A stretch of 64,000 bases of DNA from Candidatus Poribacteria bacterium (GTDB taxonomy: Bacteria > Poribacteria > WGA-4E > WGA-3G). The position numbers and the translations under genes are program-made. How positions within the stretch are numbered: position 1 is the first letter of the stretch; every line of letters starts with the position of its first letter. The stretch lies in NCBI GenBank assembly GCA_965205025.1, contig CBDBFU010000026.1:107984-171983 (forward strand), read 5' to 3'. Of this stretch, positions 33,618 through 40,393 are shown piece after piece. The notes under the pieces are model-generated. The model was not told the DNA's origin. It saw only the letters and a program-made list of their open reading frames with translations, and ran no database searches.

Positions 33618-34439
33618 ATGGATACCATTCACGACTTTGTACTCAAACAAAAAAAATATATGCCAGTCTTTCCAAAGGCAAGTGGAAAACAGACTACCTA
33701 TATTGAAGGTTATCCGTATGAGGACGATGAACCGATGGCAGCAACTGGATTTCATGGTATACAGATTACTACCTTTTATGACCAACTCTCACGATATTTT
33801 TCTATCAATGAACAGATATACATCGGCGTTGACAGTTTTATTTACTATTCTGAAGGTGACATCACAAAGTCTGTTGCTCCTGATATCTACGTTGTTTTCG
33901 GGGTTGCTAAAACCCCCGAACGCCGCAGTTTCTATACGTGGGCAGAAGGAACAGCACCTGTTGCTGTATTTGAGTTTCTCTCTGATTCAACAGCACATCG
34001 GGATCGAGATAAGAAAGTTGAATTGTATCTAAATGATATAGGTATTCAAGAATACTTTGTCCATCAACCGGAACTAAAGAAGTCTGCAGAGTTTCGCGGA
34101 TGGCAGCGAAGTCCTTCTGGTAACATTATTGAGATTAAGCCGGATGCGGAAGGTGGCTTGTTCAGTGAAGCGTTAAATCTATGGTTTCGGTGGAAGGATG
34201 ATCACACAACGGACGTAAGGCTTTTGCGTCCCTATCTACCTGACGGCACCCCGATAACAACATCTATGGAAGAAGCACGCCTCCGAGAGCAAGAAAAACA
34301 CCTACGACAGCAGGAAAAACACCTACGAGAGGAAGCCGAAGCGATGGCAGAAGCTGAAGCAGAACGCAGGCGCGAACTGGAAATTGAAATAGAACGACTT
34401 CGTACTCAACTCGCTAACGAACAAAACGAAACACCTTAA
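33618..34439 (+). CDS. Uma2 family endonuclease, copy 2
   Basis: Paralogue of copy 1 with long identical blocks and the same RBS context. Confidence 0.88.
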   Translation: MDTIHDFVLKQKKYMPVFPKASGKQTTYIEGYPYEDDEPMAATGFHGIQITTFYDQLSRYFSINEQIYIGVDSFIYYSEGDITKSVAPDIYVVFGVAKTPERRSFYTWAEGTAPVAVFEFLSDSTAHRDRDKKVELYLNDIGIQEYFVHQPELKKSAEFRGWQRSPSGNIIEIKPDAEGGLFSEALNLWFRWKDDHTTDVRLLRPYLPDGTPITTSMEEARLREQEKHLRQQEKHLREEAEAMAEAEAERRRELEIEIERLRTQLANEQNETP

Positions 34440-34557
34440 GAGAGAAAATTTTTAGCATACCCAAAAGTTGAAAATCTATTCCAGTTTATATAAGTCTTCA
34501 AATACTGTATCAGTTTTAGCCAACTGAATTGTTCTGTGAAAGACGTTGGGAAATTAT
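34437..34557 (+). repeat. Degenerate duplicate of the lpxA 3' end (copy 3)
   Basis: TAAGAGAGAAAATT...TGTATCAGTTTTAGCCAACTGAATTGTTCTGTGAAA parallels 33465-33570. Confidence 0.7.
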
Positions 34558-34601
34558 AACATTTAGATAGGATAGTTATTATAAAATATAGAAAGCTGTA
34601 G

Positions 34602-34703
34602 ATACTCACTGGTAATTGCACCGATCAGCAGAATGTCTTTAATTGGTGGATTGTTGAACATAATTCAGACATACCAAGATTGACAACTACCTATCCATTG
34701 TAA
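34602..34703 (+). pseudogene. Remnant of a DUF6883-like toxin gene
   Basis: Reads WIVEHNSDIPRLTTTYPL*, resembling the C-terminus of proteins that precede DUF4926; in-frame stop upstream. Confidence 0.55.
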
Positions 34704-34721
34704 ATTCCGGAGGAATCAACT

Positions 34722-35027
34722 GTGAAAACCAATTATTCTAATAATGCAGATCTAAGAAACTTGCCTGATTACCAACCAAGGCAAACAGATGTTAATCGAA
34801 TTGAACTATTTGATATTGTTGCACTCACACACGACTTGCCAGAACATAATCTATGGCGAGGTCAAGTCGGAACGGTAGTTGAAATACTTTCAAACGGCGA
34901 CGCGTTTGAAGTTGAATTTAGTGACCGAGATGGGCGCACCTACGAATCTCTTGGATTTCGACCTTCACAACTTATGGTACTTCATTACGAACCAATGCAG
35001 CAACCTCCAGCAGCTACCAGTGAATAA
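34722..35027 (+). CDS. DUF4926 domain protein
   Basis: LFDIVALTHDLPEHNLWRGQVGTVVEIL..AFEVEFSDRDGRTY; GGAGG RBS. Confidence 0.88.
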   Translation: MKTNYSNNADLRNLPDYQPRQTDVNRIELFDIVALTHDLPEHNLWRGQVGTVVEILSNGDAFEVEFSDRDGRTYESLGFRPSQLMVLHYEPMQQPPAATSE

Positions 35028-35249
35028 ACACAGAATGATGCGACGATGCACACTTAATGCTACGCATGAAAGTACACTTAAGGAGTATATCTATAAATAT
35101 ACCACAAAATATCTTATCTGGATTATTCCTATAATAATCCTTATCACAAGCGGTTGTTTTTCTTGTCCAATGGGTACCGAGCACAAACTAAGCATGTAAA
35201 TTTGGTTCAATTAGGGCACTGATAGGTAACATAGAAAATAATAGATAAT

Positions 35250-35357
35250 AGGAAGTTGAAATTATCGCAGCAATAGAAGCAGAACATAAGCGCGAACTGG
35301 AAAGTGAGTTAGAACAATCTCATACACAACTTACAGACAGGCAAAACGAAACACCTT
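35250..35357 (+). pseudogene. 3' fragment of a third Uma2 gene
   Basis: Aligns with 33358-33467 (GAAATTATCGCAGCAA...CAAAACGAAACA). Confidence 0.75.
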
Positions 35358-35422
35358 CCGTATGAATGTTACCACTTTCGTCGGTGGTAAGGAAGGATAG
35401 CATAAAATAAGATAATTCCATA

Positions 35423-35965
35423 ATGAGCCGATCCATAGCAATGACAGGATGTTTTTGTCCCAATTGTAAAGAATATGTTTTTTATAAAATGCGAAATGGT
35501 GATGATGTCTTATTTGACAACTTGAGCACCACACGCTTTATACGTCACATTTGTGGGAACGAAACAACTCTCCAGATGCAAGCGACTCAAATAATACCAA
35601 CAGAAGGAGAACCTACATGTGCAGCTGATTACAATAATCGCGGGATGTGGCAAGCAGAACGGGAATATTACGATATTGCTATTAGTGAATACAATATTGC
35701 GATCCGCCTTTCTCCTAATGATGCGACTCTCTATAATAATCGGGGTCGGGCAAAGGCAGCACTTTGTCGTCAGTATCCTGAGAGACCACTAGCTTACTAC
35801 TATCGTGGAAAGGCGAAAATTGAACTTGAGCAAATAGATGCAGCAAAAGAGGATTTATATACTGCATTGAAATTCGTATCGAATGTGGGTGATGATGTTA
35901 AACTCAAAAACAAAATTGAAATCAAAATTAAAAACGCCCTGCGCCTTATTAACACGCGAAATTAA
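35423..35965 (+). CDS. TPR-repeat protein with an N-terminal Cys/His motif, possibly internally deleted
   Basis: CPNC...HIC; YNNRG, AIRLSPNDATLYNNRG, AYYYRGKAK. Confidence 0.65.
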   Translation: MSRSIAMTGCFCPNCKEYVFYKMRNGDDVLFDNLSTTRFIRHICGNETTLQMQATQIIPTEGEPTCAADYNNRGMWQAEREYYDIAISEYNIAIRLSPNDATLYNNRGRAKAALCRQYPERPLAYYYRGKAKIELEQIDAAKEDLYTALKFVSNVGDDVKLKNKIEIKIKNALRLINTRN

Positions 35966-36105
35966 AGACTTACGGACAGTAGTAGGGATACCCTTACGTG
36001 CCGAAAACTTTGTCATCGTATTTAACACTGTTATTAAATTCGACATGATGCGGACACAGACCTTTAGCTGAAAAGAAAACGCGATTATTTTAGTAGGAAA
36101 ACATA

Positions 36106-36381
36106 GTGAGCGATTTAAAATGGTATGTAGAAAAACGTAAAATGAGGGATCCTGAATTTGCAGAAAATTATGAAAAAGGGTACTTAGAATTCAAACTTGG
36201 TGTCCTTCTCCGCCAAGCTCGGGAAGAGGCAGGATTAACACAAGAAGATATGGCACTAAAGTTGAATACCAAAAAATCTGCTATCTCAAAAATAGAAAAC
36301 CATGCAGAGAATGTTACGCTTTCAACTTTAAGAGAATATGCGGAAGTTGTCGGCAAGAAGATACATCTTTCGGTAGGATAA
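36106..36381 (+). CDS. XRE-family HTH antitoxin (HigA-like), toxin missing
   Basis: DPEFAENYE...[16 protein letters not shown]...SAISKIEN. Confidence 0.85.
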
Positions 36382-36422: not shown

Positions 36423-37334
36423 ATGAACGGAGAATGTCTTAATCACCTAATAACAGAAGATGAAAGGGATCATTTTGAAAAACAAGGATACCTTTATATC
36501 CCAAATGCTCTTTCATCTGAGTTGAGAGAACGTCTATTAAATGCTGTGGATAAACTCTATGATGATGCACTTGCTACTGGTAGAGCCAATCCACAGAATC
36601 AATGGGGATACTCGAATTTTATTGGAAAAGATGACGCGTTTTTAGATCTTGTTGATCATCCAACAACATTACCGAAAGTGTGGGGGATACTGGGTTGGAA
36701 TATCTATCTCTATCATGCACATCTACATGTCAAACCTCCTGCCCCAGAAGATGCACAAGTGGGTGATGGATGGTTGGAATGGCATCAAGACAGTGGCCGT
36801 GTGAATATTGAAATGGAAACACACCCACGTCCACGCCTATCTATGAAGGTCGCATATTTCCTTACGGATGTTTCTGAACCGGGACGCGGTAATTTCTATA
36901 TCCGTCCGGGTAGCCACTATTCAGATGTACCTATACCAGAATCAGAAATCAGCCGTGACCCACGCGAAAAAACTTCTTCAGATATACCTGATGACGCTAT
37001 ACCCGTGTGTGTAGAACCTGGAACTGCTGTTCTGTTTGATAGAAGGCTCTGGCATTCCCGCAGTCCAAATACTTCAGATATTACCCGAAAGGCATTATTC
37101 TACGGATATGGATATAGATGGATTCGTCCCAAAGATGATATGGTAGTTGAACATTTGTATGAACGAAGTGATCCAATTCGGAGACAATTACTCGGGGATG
37201 CTGTGAAGAACAATGGACGATATGTTCCTTCAGATGACGATGTACCATTGCGTGGATGGTTGATTGAACAGTTTGGTGAGAATTCAGTGTATTCGCAAGC
37301 ACCCCTCGGTGGTTCGTCTAACCTTCAGGTATAA
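36423..37334 (+). CDS. Phytanoyl-CoA dioxygenase (PhyH) family protein
   Basis: FEKQGYL, WHQD, PGSH, LFDRRLWH..SPN...R. Confidence 0.9.
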   Translation: MNGECLNHLITEDERDHFEKQGYLYIPNALSSELRERLLNAVDKLYDDALATGRANPQNQWGYSNFIGKDDAFLDLVDHPTTLPKVWGILGWNIYLYHAHLHVKPPAPEDAQVGDGWLEWHQDSGRVNIEMETHPRPRLSMKVAYFLTDVSEPGRGNFYIRPGSHYSDVPIPESEISRDPREKTSSDIPDDAIPVCVEPGTAVLFDRRLWHSRSPNTSDITRKALFYGYGYRWIRPKDDMVVEHLYERSDPIRRQLLGDAVKNNGRYVPSDDDVPLRGWLIEQFGENSVYSQAPLGGSSNLQV

Positions 37335-38367
37335 GACAGACTTTTCCAAAATTCCTTCGCGATTCAAGTAATTGGTGTGCTTCTGCAGCTTGCTTTAAGG
37401 GAAGTGTTGAATCAATGATGGGAACCAATTTCTGTTGCTCAGCAAGGCGGACAAGTGTTCGGAGTTCGGAGGGTGTTCCTAATGCTGATCCCATAAGTGT
37501 GAGTTGTTTCTGATACATTTTACGGATGTTGATTTCTCCGATATTCCCTGTTGTTACGCCACATGACACAAGCCTTCCATTTTTTGCAAGACTGCTGATA
37601 CTTTTTTCCCATGTAGCAGCACCGACATGCTCTAACACAACATCCACTCCACGACCATTTGTCTCCTCAAGTATCACTTCAGAGAAGTCCACATCTTTGT
37701 AGTTAATGGTAACATCGGCACCATGTTGTTTTGCACGCTCTAATTTCTCATCCGTACTTGCAGTAGCGAAGATTCGGGCACCAACGAGTTTTGCTATCTG
37801 TAGACCAGCACTACCAACACTACCCCCAGAACCGAGTATCAATATATCATCACCAGCACTTAATTGTGCTCGTGTAATGAGCATATGCCATGCCGTTAGA
37901 TAAGCAATCGGTAATGCTGATGCTTCAGTAAAAGATAACGTATCTGCTATTGGAATAGCGTTTTTAGTAGGTGCTTTGACATACTCTGCATACCCACCGT
38001 TGGTTTGAAACCCTAATAATTCTTGGGTATCACACAAGTTTTCATATCCACCTAAACAATCAGAACATATACCGCATGGAATACATGGAGCGAGTAGAAT
38101 ACGATCTCCGATTTCGAGATGAGGATGGGTGCCAGAAATATCAGCAATTTCACCTGCAATGTCAGAACCGAGGATATGCGGTGTACCTGTCTCTTCAAGT
38201 TTCCGCTTTATCTCTGGTCTGTTGCGTCGCGCGTGGATATCAAGATAGTTAACAGAACATGCTTTAACTTTGATGAGGATTTCATCAGGACCAATGACAG
38301 GATCATCAATTTCTTGATACTGTAAAACGTCAATTTCACCCTGTTCTGTAAAAGCAATTGCTTTCAT
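37318..38367 (-). CDS. Zinc-binding dehydrogenase / quinone oxidoreductase family
   Basis: SVNYLD, PHILGSD, CxxCxxC-x7-C, GGYAEY, LTAWHML. Confidence 0.88.
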   Translation of the reverse strand: MKAIAFTEQGEIDVLQYQEIDDPVIGPDEILIKVKACSVNYLDIHARRNRPEIKRKLEETGTPHILGSDIAGEIADISGTHPHLEIGDRILLAPCIPCGICSDCLGGYENLCDTQELLGFQTNGGYAEYVKAPTKNAIPIADTLSFTEASALPIAYLTAWHMLITRAQLSAGDDILILGSGGSVGSAGLQIAKLVGARIFATASTDEKLERAKQHGADVTINYKDVDFSEVILEETNGRGVDVVLEHVGAATWEKSISSLAKNGRLVSCGVTTGNIGEINIRKMYQKQLTLMGSALGTPSELRTLVRLAEQQKLVPIIDSTLPLKQAAEAHQLLESRRNFGKVCLIPEG

Positions 38368-38371
38368 TGCA

Positions 38372-39049
38372 TTATTGTTCCGATGAATCAGAATAGGTAC
38401 GCCAGATTGAATCTGCCAGACGACTTCCCGCGCCAACTAACCGGGCTAAAACGCCAATCTGATCTCGACAAGTCACACTGTCAGTTGGTTCGGGATAATT
38501 AAGCAAGTGAGCGATTTCCCCCCAAATTTCCTCAAAAAGAGTTCTGACTTGTATCTCACAAGAAACAGGCGAATCTTCTCTGGGCTTAATCACGTAGTGA
38601 ATGCTGGTGTATAAACTTTCTCTTACCTCAACACTTAGTCCATGAGCAGCAAAGAAATCTTGTGATTCTGGGTCCCAGGTAAAGGCTTTAGGTCGTTCAT
38701 AAAGCACCCAATCTTGACTGTCCAATTTTTCATTTATTGCAGTGTGAATCTGTGTGAATTGCGTTTGAAATAGATGAAGCACTCGAGCTCCAGCGATGTC
38801 GGTTATCCGATCAAAGATATTCTCTGGTGTGATTGGGTCTTCAGTTGACGACTTACGGTGGACTTTTTCACGGAGAGGTTGCAAGTCTTTCATCCGACTT
38901 TTGACTGAATGAACGATTGGGGGCGATTGGGTTAGGTTTGGATGTGTTTCAAAGAAGCGAACTGTATTCTCACGAAAGAGATTTATACTGTGAAGTTCAC
39001 TTTGAACTCGTTCTATAATAGCCTCCATACTTGCCTCATCAACCATCAT
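38372..39049 (-). CDS. RelA/SpoT synthetase-domain protein (small alarmone synthetase-like)
   Basis: KSRMK..LREKVHRK, ITDIAGARV, YTSIHY, CEIQVRTLFEEIWGEIAH..NY; no hydrolase domain. Confidence 0.88.
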   Translation of the reverse strand: MMVDEASMEAIIERVQSELHSINLFRENTVRFFETHPNLTQSPPIVHSVKSRMKDLQPLREKVHRKSSTEDPITPENIFDRITDIAGARVLHLFQTQFTQIHTAINEKLDSQDWVLYERPKAFTWDPESQDFFAAHGLSVEVRESLYTSIHYVIKPREDSPVSCEIQVRTLFEEIWGEIAHLLNYPEPTDSVTCRDQIGVLARLVGAGSRLADSIWRTYSDSSEQ

Positions 39050-40151
39050 TAACCTCCAGTTGATCCAGGCGCGTTAAAAGGTCTTTAGCGAAAATATGGA
39101 AACCTATTTTTGTATTTTCATATAGTTGTCTATTGCCCGAAATTGTGCTCTTATCTTCCTTCTCCAAGTTTTCACAACTTGGGACTTCCCACATCGGCAT
39201 TCTGTATTTTTGAGCCATATTCGGACGTGTTGAATAGGAGTGCATAATAGCCGTTGCTCCGACAGGATCTTCTAATTGTTCGTTAGTTAGATGTTTTCTG
39301 TGGTCAGGGTCAATATATTCTTGAATTGTGGTAGGAATCTGTTTGGCATAGTTCTGATGTGCCTGAGATAAATCCCATTCCCCTGATCCGGCGTATCTCT
39401 TTGCATTGAAAATTGTGAATCCCAAAAAGCTGACGAAATTTTCAGGAAAATGGCTTAATTTTGCATCGGAGAGTAGGTTAAATATCGTATCAAAGTCGCG
39501 CTTCCAACTTTTAAGGGATTTACCGATATTTTGTATGCCGTAAAGCGAAAACATATCTGGCATACAAGGAATGAGAAATCCATCTACAGTGGATATGATG
39601 ACTTTATTAAGTATGCCAAGACTTGGTGATGTATCAATTACAACATAGTCATAGGAATAATTTTTTGCATAGACTTCGCAAAAATTTCGGATTTGTGTTA
39701 CAGTCCGAATTGCAAGTGGGTCCCCGCCATATACATCGTTCCATCGACTCGCAATTTTGTCTTCGTAAGTATGTATTGAAAGTCTGCCCGGAATCATTCC
39801 TAAATTATTGTGTAGTTTAAGAGGTTGTGCAAGATGTCTCGGTGTATCCGTTCCGTCTTCTGTTGGCTTTAAACTAAAATGAATAGAACGGACACCACAG
39901 ACGATCTCTTCAAACTCATCCTGGGATTTTTCATCACGTGCTTGAACAAAATCATCTATAAATGCCTCCTCAACCTGCCAGATGTTGTGTAATTCTTCTG
40001 GGTCCAATCCAAATAGTGTTAGATTCGATTGTGGGTCTAAATCAATAAGTAGTGTTTTATAACCTAACTCGGCAAGTGCGTACCCAAGATGATAGGTCAA
40101 AGTTGTTTTACCAACGCCTCCTTTATTGTTGAATACGGCGATTGACTTCAT
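39039..40151 (-). CDS. ParA/MinD-family ATPase (orphan, extended)
   Basis: FNNKGGVGKTT deviant Walker A, IDLDPQSNLT, DYVVIDTSPSLG; AAGGAGG RBS. Confidence 0.9.
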   Translation of the reverse strand: MKSIAVFNNKGGVGKTTLTYHLGYALAELGYKTLLIDLDPQSNLTLFGLDPEELHNIWQVEEAFIDDFVQARDEKSQDEFEEIVCGVRSIHFSLKPTEDGTDTPRHLAQPLKLHNNLGMIPGRLSIHTYEDKIASRWNDVYGGDPLAIRTVTQIRNFCEVYAKNYSYDYVVIDTSPSLGILNKVIISTVDGFLIPCMPDMFSLYGIQNIGKSLKSWKRDFDTIFNLLSDAKLSHFPENFVSFLGFTIFNAKRYAGSGEWDLSQAHQNYAKQIPTTIQEYIDPDHRKHLTNEQLEDPVGATAIMHSYSTRPNMAQKYRMPMWEVPSCENLEKEDKSTISGNRQLYENTKIGFHIFAKDLLTRLDQLEVNDG

Positions 40152-40393
40152 TTTTGTTTCCTCCTTTGTCAGTGCACCATGTATCATTGCTATCTGTAGA
40201 TTACACAGGTGTTTATTAAAATTGTTCCTGATAGAATTCCTTAACGTGAGTTGTATAATCAATAGGAATGTGTGAGAAAGAAGAATCTTAAGGTATAACA
40301 AAGTAAGCAGTCACTAAAGAGATTTTCATTATAACACTTTTATTGTATATAGACAAATTTTTTGCATCTATCATCTGAAATTGAATTAATCCA

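Follow-up and report, generated by a model that had tools for sequence, protein, structure and literature searches.

A ParA-like ATPase gene coupled to a small alarmone synthetase gene, from a Poribacteria chromosome to P2-like prophages: a candidate two-gene conflict module

What might a partition-type ATPase do next to an alarmone synthetase, when no partition partner adjoins it? The question is raised by a 64,000-nucleotide stretch of a Candidatus Poribacteria genome (assembly GCA_965205025.1, contig CBDBFU010000026.1, positions 107,984 to 171,983; hereafter the window), in which the gene of a ParA-like ATPase overlaps that of a RelA/SpoT-type small alarmone synthetase. Alarmone-synthetase toxins are an emerging class of immune effectors, the known members being under the control of small antitoxins, a fused sensor domain (CapRel) or a nucleoid protein (PANGU); here two well-studied protein families are coupled in a new way, in a pairing that is widespread and unnamed in the sources we searched. 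A first-pass annotation of the window, made from the letters alone, had proposed that the two genes form a coupled cassette and a candidate conflict or defence system. Given the conserved coupling of the genes, the failure of the synthetase to qualify as a RelP/RelQ equivalog, the lack of a match in PADLOC and the placement of homologues in a published anti-phage hotspot, a role in conflict or defence is now the best reading, and we consider it rather probable that the pair makes up a conflict module of two genes, self-contained and mobile by horizontal transfer, most likely an anti-phage system of the abortive-infection type.

The gene pair and its conservation

The pair and its expression signals in the window comprise:

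40151..39039, minus strand: ParA-like deviant-Walker-A ATPase, 370 aa, starting MKSIAVFNNKGGVGKTT (open reading frame, Pfam, alignment and AlphaFold2 model)
39049..38372, minus strand: RelA/SpoT-type small alarmone synthetase, SYNTH domain only, 225 aa (open reading frame, Pfam and AlphaFold2 model)
40164..40160, minus strand: Shine-Dalgarno motif GGAGG of the ATPase gene, 8 nt 5' of its ATG (read from the sequence)
39057..39053, minus strand: Shine-Dalgarno motif GGAGG of the synthetase gene, inside the 3' end of the ATPase gene (read from the sequence)
40356..40328, minus strand: promoter-like site some 177 nt ahead of the ATPase start, TTGTCT, 17-nt spacer and TATAAT with an upstream TG (consensus scan)

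The first-pass description of the two genes was borne out. They overlap by 11 nt (39039-39049) if the synthetase starts at its first ATG, or by 8 nt from an alternative in-frame ATG at 39046, the synthetase GGAGG lying 3 nt from the first and 6 nt from the second; the strong ribosome-binding site that had been noted is the GGAGG ahead of the ATPase gene. The deviant-Walker-A ATPase does carry inserts and a long C-terminal extension (some 120 extra residues compared with the Soj/ParA structures of ca. 250 residues), and no ParB-like gene adjoins the pair, its neighbours being a Zn-dependent alcohol dehydrogenase and a DDE transposase. The second protein is, as stated, a synthetase-only RelA/SpoT homologue (RSH) with all five SYNTH motifs (S51-R52-x-K54, D84-IAGA-R89, Y147-TSIHY152, E165-IQVRT170 and W176-GEIAH181) and no hydrolase. 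Pfam assigns AAA_31 (1.5e-31) and other ParA/MinD-type families to the ATPase, and to the synthetase RelA_SpoT (PF04607) only, at 58.9 bits against a cut-off of 27; neither an HD hydrolase domain nor TGS/ACT domains appear in the Pfam results or the model, which is the domain content of a small alarmone synthetase. The same genome carries one long RSH, on a different contig. Neither protein reaches a curated equivalog cut-off in NCBIfam: the ATPase scores 73.3 bits with ParA_partition NF041546 (cut-off 180) and 70 with RepA (348), and the synthetase 36.6 bits with RelQ/YjbM NF053588 (320). The promoter-like site scores 10 out of 12 in a consensus scan that was overall not above chance (11 sites versus 9.4 expected in shuffled sequence), and the weight that we give it comes instead from conservation, as its TTGT... 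and TGT.ATA.T blocks are kept upstream of the ATPase gene in five Poribacteria species. The window copy is a chromosomal, promoter-bearing and apparently intact member of its family.

A search of the full protein library with the synthetase returned 1711 representatives at E <= 0.001 (93 at <= 1e-30), and when an alignment of 52 relatives was run against one genome for each species, at least 485 loci were confirmed, the best 80 of which we examined. The linkage proposed for the window recurs in other genomes: a ParA-like gene lies directly upstream of the synthetase gene in 77 of these 80 loci, and the pair is present in 30 of the 32 loci on viral contigs that hold a synthetase relative. The ATPase is of the same type as that of the window in 75 of the genome loci (48-88% identity; two are cut by contig ends, two frameshifted and one has an internal stop) and of a shorter type, ca. 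335 aa and 27% identical to the window ATPase, in two. This shorter type (L073, L074 and L124; 27-28%) pairs with the same synthetase family, the genes again overlapping, and the ATPase partner therefore has at least two forms. The three exceptions among the 80 are a locus at a contig edge (L030), a truncated copy (L034) and a longer RSH (L088), the last being a 424-aa form of the synthetase in a Candidatus Uhrbacteria metagenome-assembled genome (MAG), with a C-terminal extension and no ATPase gene upstream.

Hosts of the 80 loci belong to Poribacteria, Pseudomonadota (Alpha-, Beta- and Gammaproteobacteria), Bacillota, Bacteroidota, Acidobacteriota, Chloroflexota, Desulfobacterota, Myxococcota and Campylobacterota, together with two archaeal MAGs (Methanothrix and Methanobacterium), contamination being possible in MAGs. 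The best-scoring copies outside Poribacteria come from an unclassified MAG (ATPase 66.5%, synthetase 72%) and from the Methanothrix MAG (66% and 67%). The cassette thus ranges from prophages of E. coli to archaeal MAGs and sponge symbionts, and its distribution is rare, patchy and mobile. The extrapolated spacing of the two genes varies from -35 to +44 nt (68 loci), and all-against-all clustering of 901 neighbouring open reading frames (ORFs) found no third conserved gene beside the pair outside Poribacteria. Pairwise identities of the two proteins co-vary over 58 shared loci (Mantel r = 0.75, with none of 999 permutations as high), also among pairs below 70% identity (r = 0.52); the pair is therefore inherited and transferred as a unit, a pattern that by itself is no proof of binding. 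Probing with the C-terminal region of the ATPase gave one match in each of five genomes known to carry the pair and in two of 400 gammaproteobacterial genomes, one of these an already known carrier, and in this small sample of probed genomes we found no case of the region without the synthetase. In the ESM Atlas the best score for the same region was 0.87, to generic "ParA family" clusters and below a meaningful level.

Both proteins look active, judging by their alignments. Across 62 ATPase sequences the residues N8-N9-K10-G-G-V-G-K15, D37, D39 and D173 (deviant Walker A with K10 as the signature lysine, Walker A' and Walker B) are invariant, as are C-terminal residues including W216, K231, Y268, Q314, P319, W321 and P324. 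Among 68 synthetase sequences 32 residues are invariant, including R52, K54, K62, K66, D84, R89, Y147, S149, E165, Q167, R169, E174, E178, H181 and Y185, and the residues of the five SYNTH motifs are invariant or nearly so. AlphaFold2 models built on the family alignments are confident, with a predicted local distance difference test (pLDDT) of 93.3 for the ATPase and 91.8 for the synthetase. The nearest structure to the ATPase is PDB 3PG5 (profile E 1.2e-36 over positions 1-340), followed by Soj/ParA. In the synthetase model two long helices, one N-terminal (5-35) and one C-terminal (192-223), flank the SYNTH core, and the best Foldseek matches of the model are RelP/RelQ (6e-10 to 5e-9, template modelling score 0.52-0.66), with CapRel at rank 40 (1.4e-6); the family profile agrees, giving 4e-11 for RelP (RelP/RelQ) and 0.35 for CapRel. 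The comparison with CapRel and the tRNA-modifying synthetase toxins, on which the first-pass annotation had leaned, is thus the weaker one. A housekeeping RelP/Q-type enzyme, which it had also allowed for, is not supported at the level of equivalogs, even though RelP and RelQ are the closest relatives in sequence and fold. Since profile and fold both lie nearest to RelP/RelQ, and since the family is acidic to neutral (median net charge -4 in 68 members), a free-nucleotide product appears favoured over tRNA modification. Prediction of a complex between the ATPase and the synthetase gave scores of 0.20 and 0.27, relative to a mark of 0.32, which count neither for nor against a contact.

Carriage by P2-like prophages

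In PHROG scans that covered 126 ORFs on either side of the pair in 23 viral loci (near-identical copies left out), the recurrent families included the P2-type portal, the large terminase and the replication gene A (gpA). According to per-protein scans and tblastn, the order in L122 is gpA, the pair, one unknown gene, portal and terminase, and in L109 and a prophage of Edwardsiella ictaluri (L071=L098=L100) it is terminase, portal, the pair and gpA. The pair adjoins the portal gene in three other loci (L096, L097 and L099), and in L115 it lies on the terminase side of the terminase-portal pair, outside the slot between gpA and portal. Of 5426 complete E. coli genomes, at least seven proved to contain the pair when compared at the DNA level with the Edwardsiella copy. 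For E. coli J31, RefSeq lists in order a replication endonuclease, a hypothetical protein, a DinI family protein, a ParA family protein and a RelA/SpoT domain-containing protein, followed on the opposite strand by portal and terminase; here the ParA family and RelA/SpoT proteins are, over their full length, 50% and 49% identical to those of the window.

The interval from gpA to the portal gene gpQ is described as the main defence hotspot of P2-like phages, the site of old and tin, and the cargo tested from it, as far as these accounts of the hotspot go, is mostly defensive (PMC9122126, Rousset et al. 2022; PMC13586616, NAR 2026). This slot is occupied by homologues of the window pair (J31, L122, L109 and L071/L098/L100) and not by the chromosomal window copy itself. 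We read the pair as a mobile conflict module because in P2-like prophages of E. coli and other hosts it takes up the interval between gpA and portal, already published as an anti-phage hotspot. The main texts of the two hotspot papers contain neither "RelA" nor "ParA". The copy in the E. coli hotspot makes the question of function directly testable.

No close copy was found among cultured phage records, which gave two distant matches at 30-35%, and only one of 72,556 plasmid records has a close copy, a 1.68-Mb Caballeronia replicon. Distant relatives of the synthetase (33% identity), annotated as RelA/SpoT domain-containing, occur on Bacillus anthracis plasmids of ca. 181 kb, with 99 Bacillus records in all.

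The Poribacteria site

The surroundings of the pair in the window were compared with those in other genomes of its genus. The neighbours are:

38367..37318, minus strand: Zn-dependent alcohol dehydrogenase gene (Pfam ADH_N and ADH_zinc_N), starting 4 nt past the synthetase stop; a neighbour, outside the cassette
41404..40436, minus strand: DDE transposase ORF of an insertion sequence (IS) (Pfam DDE_Tnp_1_3, 6e-16, and DDE_Tnp_1); an insertion specific to the window genome, outside the cassette
47559-48368: second PhyH gene, beyond a block of IS and leucine-rich-repeat (LRR) genes on the ATPase side

In five related species the pair is flanked by the same dehydrogenase and PhyH genes, and in four of these five the second PhyH gene comes directly after the ATPase gene. 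The IS/LRR block, missing at the pair in the five related Poribacteria, is therefore an insertion private to the window genome, and given that core promoter bases are kept in five species, the IS landed upstream of a likely native promoter. Every genome of the genus that was searched for the dehydrogenase (40 of 40) has it, whether the pair is there or not, and it adjoins the pair in Poribacteria only; the pair itself diverges about as much as its flanks.

Six of 24 other genomes of the genus hold the synthetase, and in five of these six the ATPase adjoins it. Thirty loci could be compared at the fixed site between dehydrogenase and PhyH: eight contain an intact pair, 16 are empty (dehydrogenase directly beside PhyH), three contain remnants and three are otherwise different. 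Empty sites include two of the three closest relatives by dehydrogenase identity. The remnants represent three independent decay states at the same site: in G007 (L151) the ATPase is intact and codons ca. 16-208 of the synthetase are deleted, in G460 (L155) the ATPase is accompanied by just both ends of the synthetase, and in G009 (L159) the ATPase is gone and the synthetase lacks residues 1-65. An intact synthetase alone is left in none of the three. In our judgement such recurrent loss at one site is the typical pattern of accessory conflict genes, and Poribacteria would thus offer a case of an accessory immune-type locus repeatedly lost at one fixed chromosomal position. A different content is seen in a very close relative (G447, L137), where ca. 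1.4 kb of unidentified sequence between dehydrogenase and PhyH replaces the cassette; the PhyH residues visible in this locus (34; 236-269) are 100% identical to those of the window PhyH.

The first-pass annotation had drawn part of its argument from this neighbourhood, and that part fared less well. It rightly had the pair abutting a metabolic gene, the dehydrogenase. The IS, placed at about 240 bp and named IS982, ends 284 bp from the ATPase start and is assigned by Pfam to DDE_Tnp_1_3/DDE_Tnp_1. The toxin-antitoxin remnants and nucleases are real ORFs (Uma2, DUF4926 and HTH_3), though not conserved beside the pair elsewhere. As a defence context, IS, remnants and nucleases are all incidental, for the five related Poribacteria lack the IS/LRR block and the neighbours differ in other lineages. 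On the same grounds we rejected the IS and the Uma2/DUF4926/HTH genes as parts of the cassette. The proposal of a conflict role gains the support of pair conservation and of the P2 hotspot, and loses that of the local context, with no signal of a defence island either.

On the ATPase side (40436-47504) the transposase ORF is followed by two large LRR proteins, one of 1067 aa with a lamin-tail domain and one of 830 aa. On the synthetase side, past the dehydrogenase, there is a PhyH dioxygenase and then, at 33618-36381, an HTH_3 (XRE-type) protein, a short tetratricopeptide-repeat (TPR) protein, a DUF4926 protein and a Uma2 putative endonuclease.

Relation to known systems, possible control and other explanations

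The closest parallels in organisation are the toxic small alarmone synthetases (toxSAS: FaRel, FaRel2, PhRel, PhRel2 and CapRel), which according to the account in PMC7229694 share with our cassette a SYNTH-only enzyme, a conserved operon of two genes, in many cases overlapping, that includes a cognate regulator, dissemination by horizontal transfer and occurrence on prophages; the bicistronic arrangement is what we found in nearly all genome and viral loci (77/80 and 30/32). They differ in that the partner here is a 370-aa ParA-type ATPase with intact catalytic residues, the word "ATPase" being absent from the main text of that paper, and in that the enzyme here, for which toxicity is putative, lies nearer to RelP/RelQ than to CapRel, the one toxSAS through which the comparison was made. 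CapRel SJ46 (PDB 7ZTB) is likewise a RelA/SpoT-fold effector on a prophage that acts in anti-phage defence; however, it unites the effector and a C-terminal antitoxin/sensor domain in one polypeptide and acts on tRNA, and no fused domain is present here. In the anti-phage system PANGU type I, as its preprint describes it (bioRxiv 10.64898/2026.04.06.716658), the YejK-like nucleoid protein Pag1A is paired with the GRel synthetase Pag1B, which alone is non-toxic and remains an inert tetramer until the nucleoid protein, freed from degraded DNA, activates it. The two-gene operon, the synthetase effector and the control by a DNA-associated partner are points of likeness, and PANGU thus offers a pattern by which a DNA-binding ATPase could act as an activator. 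Nevertheless, the partner here is ParA-like (AAA_31, Soj/ParA fold) and not YejK-like, its DNA binding is putative, and whereas Pag1B is reported there to carry a DNA-mimic domain, our 225-aa synthetase has no extra C-terminal domain in the model.

As regards the single proteins, RelP/RelQ (SAS2/SAS1) are the best matches of the synthetase in sequence and structure, with the same SYNTH core flanked by long N- and C-terminal helices; yet identity is only ca. 20%, the YjbM score stays far below the equivalog level (36.6 bits versus 320), and the synthetase here is ATPase-paired, patchy and mobile. The ATPase shares with ParA, Soj and MinD the deviant Walker A KGGVGKT, the Walker A' and Walker B aspartates and the fold; unlike them, it has no ParB partner and carries inserts and a C-terminal region of ca. 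120 aa which, in the genomes searched, occurred nowhere but beside the synthetase. The structure 3PG5 is that of DIP2308, an uncharacterised protein of Corynebacterium diphtheriae solved by structural genomics and a near full-length homologue of the ATPase, for which no function is described in the papers searched. The first-pass annotation could not match the pairing to a named system, and we likewise found no description of a ParA-like ATPase with a RelA/SpoT synthetase in PADLOC or in the main texts of the literature searched, where supplementary tables could list it; word searches covered PMC7229694, PMC10440598, PMC12691689, PMC9122126, PMC13586616, PMC13092281, PMC9519451 and PMC7159879. 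The last of these, in the part bearing on effectors, mentions RelA domains and, apart from them, (inactive) MinD/ParA domains as effector domains, without pairing the two. We rate the pair as an alarmone-synthetase conflict module with a new class of partner, which a table or a recent database entry may possibly hold already. If this is true, a catalytically intact ParA-type ATPase as obligate partner would constitute a new control principle, an ATP-driven dimer switch, and the uncharacterised ATPase clade with a crystal structure (3PG5) would receive its first function.

We postulate that the synthetase acts as the effector, a RelP/RelQ-like small alarmone synthetase that, once switched on, would transfer pyrophosphate from ATP to a purine nucleotide to give (p)ppGpp and/or (pp)pApp, draining ATP and GTP and arresting growth. 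The ATP-dependent dimer switch of the ATPase would control it, either by holding it off as an antitoxin or by licensing it after a trigger as a sensor or activator. What the comparisons show is the structure of the genes, the intact motifs, the strict co-occurrence and co-variation of the pair, its patchy and mobile distribution and its seat in a defence hotspot of prophages; toxicity, product, physical contact between the two proteins, trigger and protection against phages are inferred parts of this scheme. The direction of control is about evenly balanced. The gene order points to antitoxin-like control, as do the three decayed copies in the genus, where no intact synthetase survives by itself; pointers to activator-like control are the RelP/RelQ-like fold, the PANGU precedent and three loci in which the ATPase gene is disrupted and the synthetase keeps all 19 checked residues. 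These are L064 of Sphingomonas faeni, with a stop near codon 270, and two frameshifted loci, L070 of Caballeronia pedi (near codon 40) and the MAG locus L079 (near codon 305), the disruption being severe in L070 only.

A more specific form of activator control, which we put forward tentatively, would have the ATPase serve as a sensor of cell state, a second and independent PANGU-like logic built on a partition-type ATPase. It would reside on the nucleoid as an ATP-bound dimer, like Soj/ParA; once a phage breaks down the chromosome or makes the ATP pool collapse, the ATPase would leave the DNA and license an otherwise inert RelQ-like synthetase, resulting in a flood of alarmone. The combination of a broken ATPase gene and an intact synthetase in three loci suits an activator better than an antitoxin.

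Several observations weigh against a mobile anti-phage module. The three broken-ATPase loci argue against an obligate antitoxin, although sequencing error or lost translational coupling could explain them all. The enzyme lies nearest to RelP/RelQ, non-toxic in the assays that Jimmy et al. report (PMC7229694). A scan of up to three ORFs per side in 52 non-Poribacteria genome loci, made as family tallies rather than per-locus counts and excluding nine loci whose synthetase ORF was lost in ORF picking (L033, L040, L051, L054, L069, L079, L080, L093 and L095), returned mostly metabolic neighbours; this crude test showed no defence-island signal (HerA in 2 of 130 upstream and mad2 in 3 of 133 downstream ORFs, all other PADLOC hits single) and no recurrent integrase or transposase family beside the loci. 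PADLOC-DB 2.0.0, which gave no full-length system match, did give weak partial hits, PDC-M28B over residues 3-41 (the P-loop tip) and PDC-S33 at 2.4e-4. In Poribacteria the pair sits at a syntenic chromosomal position, 4 nt ahead of a core dehydrogenase gene, and may possibly have been domesticated for a physiological role. The evidence is, moreover, drawn throughout from genes and sequence.

The possibility of a domesticated role can be widened into a physiological alarmone module, neither toxin nor defence, in which RelP/RelQ-like (p)ppGpp synthesis would serve host stress responses and be tuned by an ATPase reporting the state of the nucleoid, the ATP pool or the cell cycle. The housekeeping kinship of the enzyme, the metabolic neighbours and a Poribacteria pair that diverges like its flanks are all in its favour; a rare, patchy distribution with empty sites even in the closest relatives, nearest non-Poribacteria homologues that include an archaeal MAG, residence in accessory slots of prophages and the presence of a long RSH in the same genome make it quite improbable to us. 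A classical toxin-antitoxin addiction pair, with a constitutively toxic synthetase, the ATPase as its protein antitoxin and no dedicated anti-phage role, would account for the regulator gene coming first (as in most type II modules), for the overlap of the genes and the lack of a third conserved gene, and it has a precedent in the toxin-antitoxin modules of toxSAS that PMC7229694 presents. That decay in the genus (G007, G460 and G009) never leaves an intact synthetase without the ATPase speaks for such a pair and is to be counted among the points against our preferred reading. We nonetheless hold an addiction pair to be unlikely, as three loci combine a broken ATPase gene with an intact-looking synthetase, a 370-aa ATPase with all catalytic residues conserved exceeds the needs of a plug, and the position in the P2 gpA-portal hotspot points to defence.

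The same architecture could also run on other chemistry, namely pyrophosphorylation of the tRNA CCA end as in FaRel2, PhRel2 or CapRel, with no free alarmone. Several toxSAS are reported to modify tRNA, and CapRel is a significant, though lower, fold match; the profile and fold rankings given above, together with the negative median charge of the family (weak evidence against a basic tRNA-binding surface), leave us with little expectation of it. Highly improbable, finally, is a partition-related or phage-serving role, with segregation of a replicon or prophage as the task of the ATPase and the synthetase as a helper of the element, e.g., for lysogeny control: the ParA/Soj fold and motifs and the carriage by prophages are compatible with it, but there is neither a ParB-type partner nor a third conserved gene, only one plasmid record and no cultured phage record has a close copy, most copies are chromosomal and the ParA partition equivalog is missed (73 bits versus 180). 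A conflict module in which the ATPase gates a RelP/RelQ-like effector thus remains the reading that we prefer.

Of ten longer relatives of the synthetase that were scanned, two are fusions to TPR arrays (P0182, 619 aa, and P0235, 813 aa), with a synthetase domain ca. 40% identical. A TPR fusion is a sensor-type architecture and fits a recurring use of the synthetase as the output of sensor modules. Other long relatives carry a methyltransferase or a CBM_3 domain and are possibly artefacts of gene calling.

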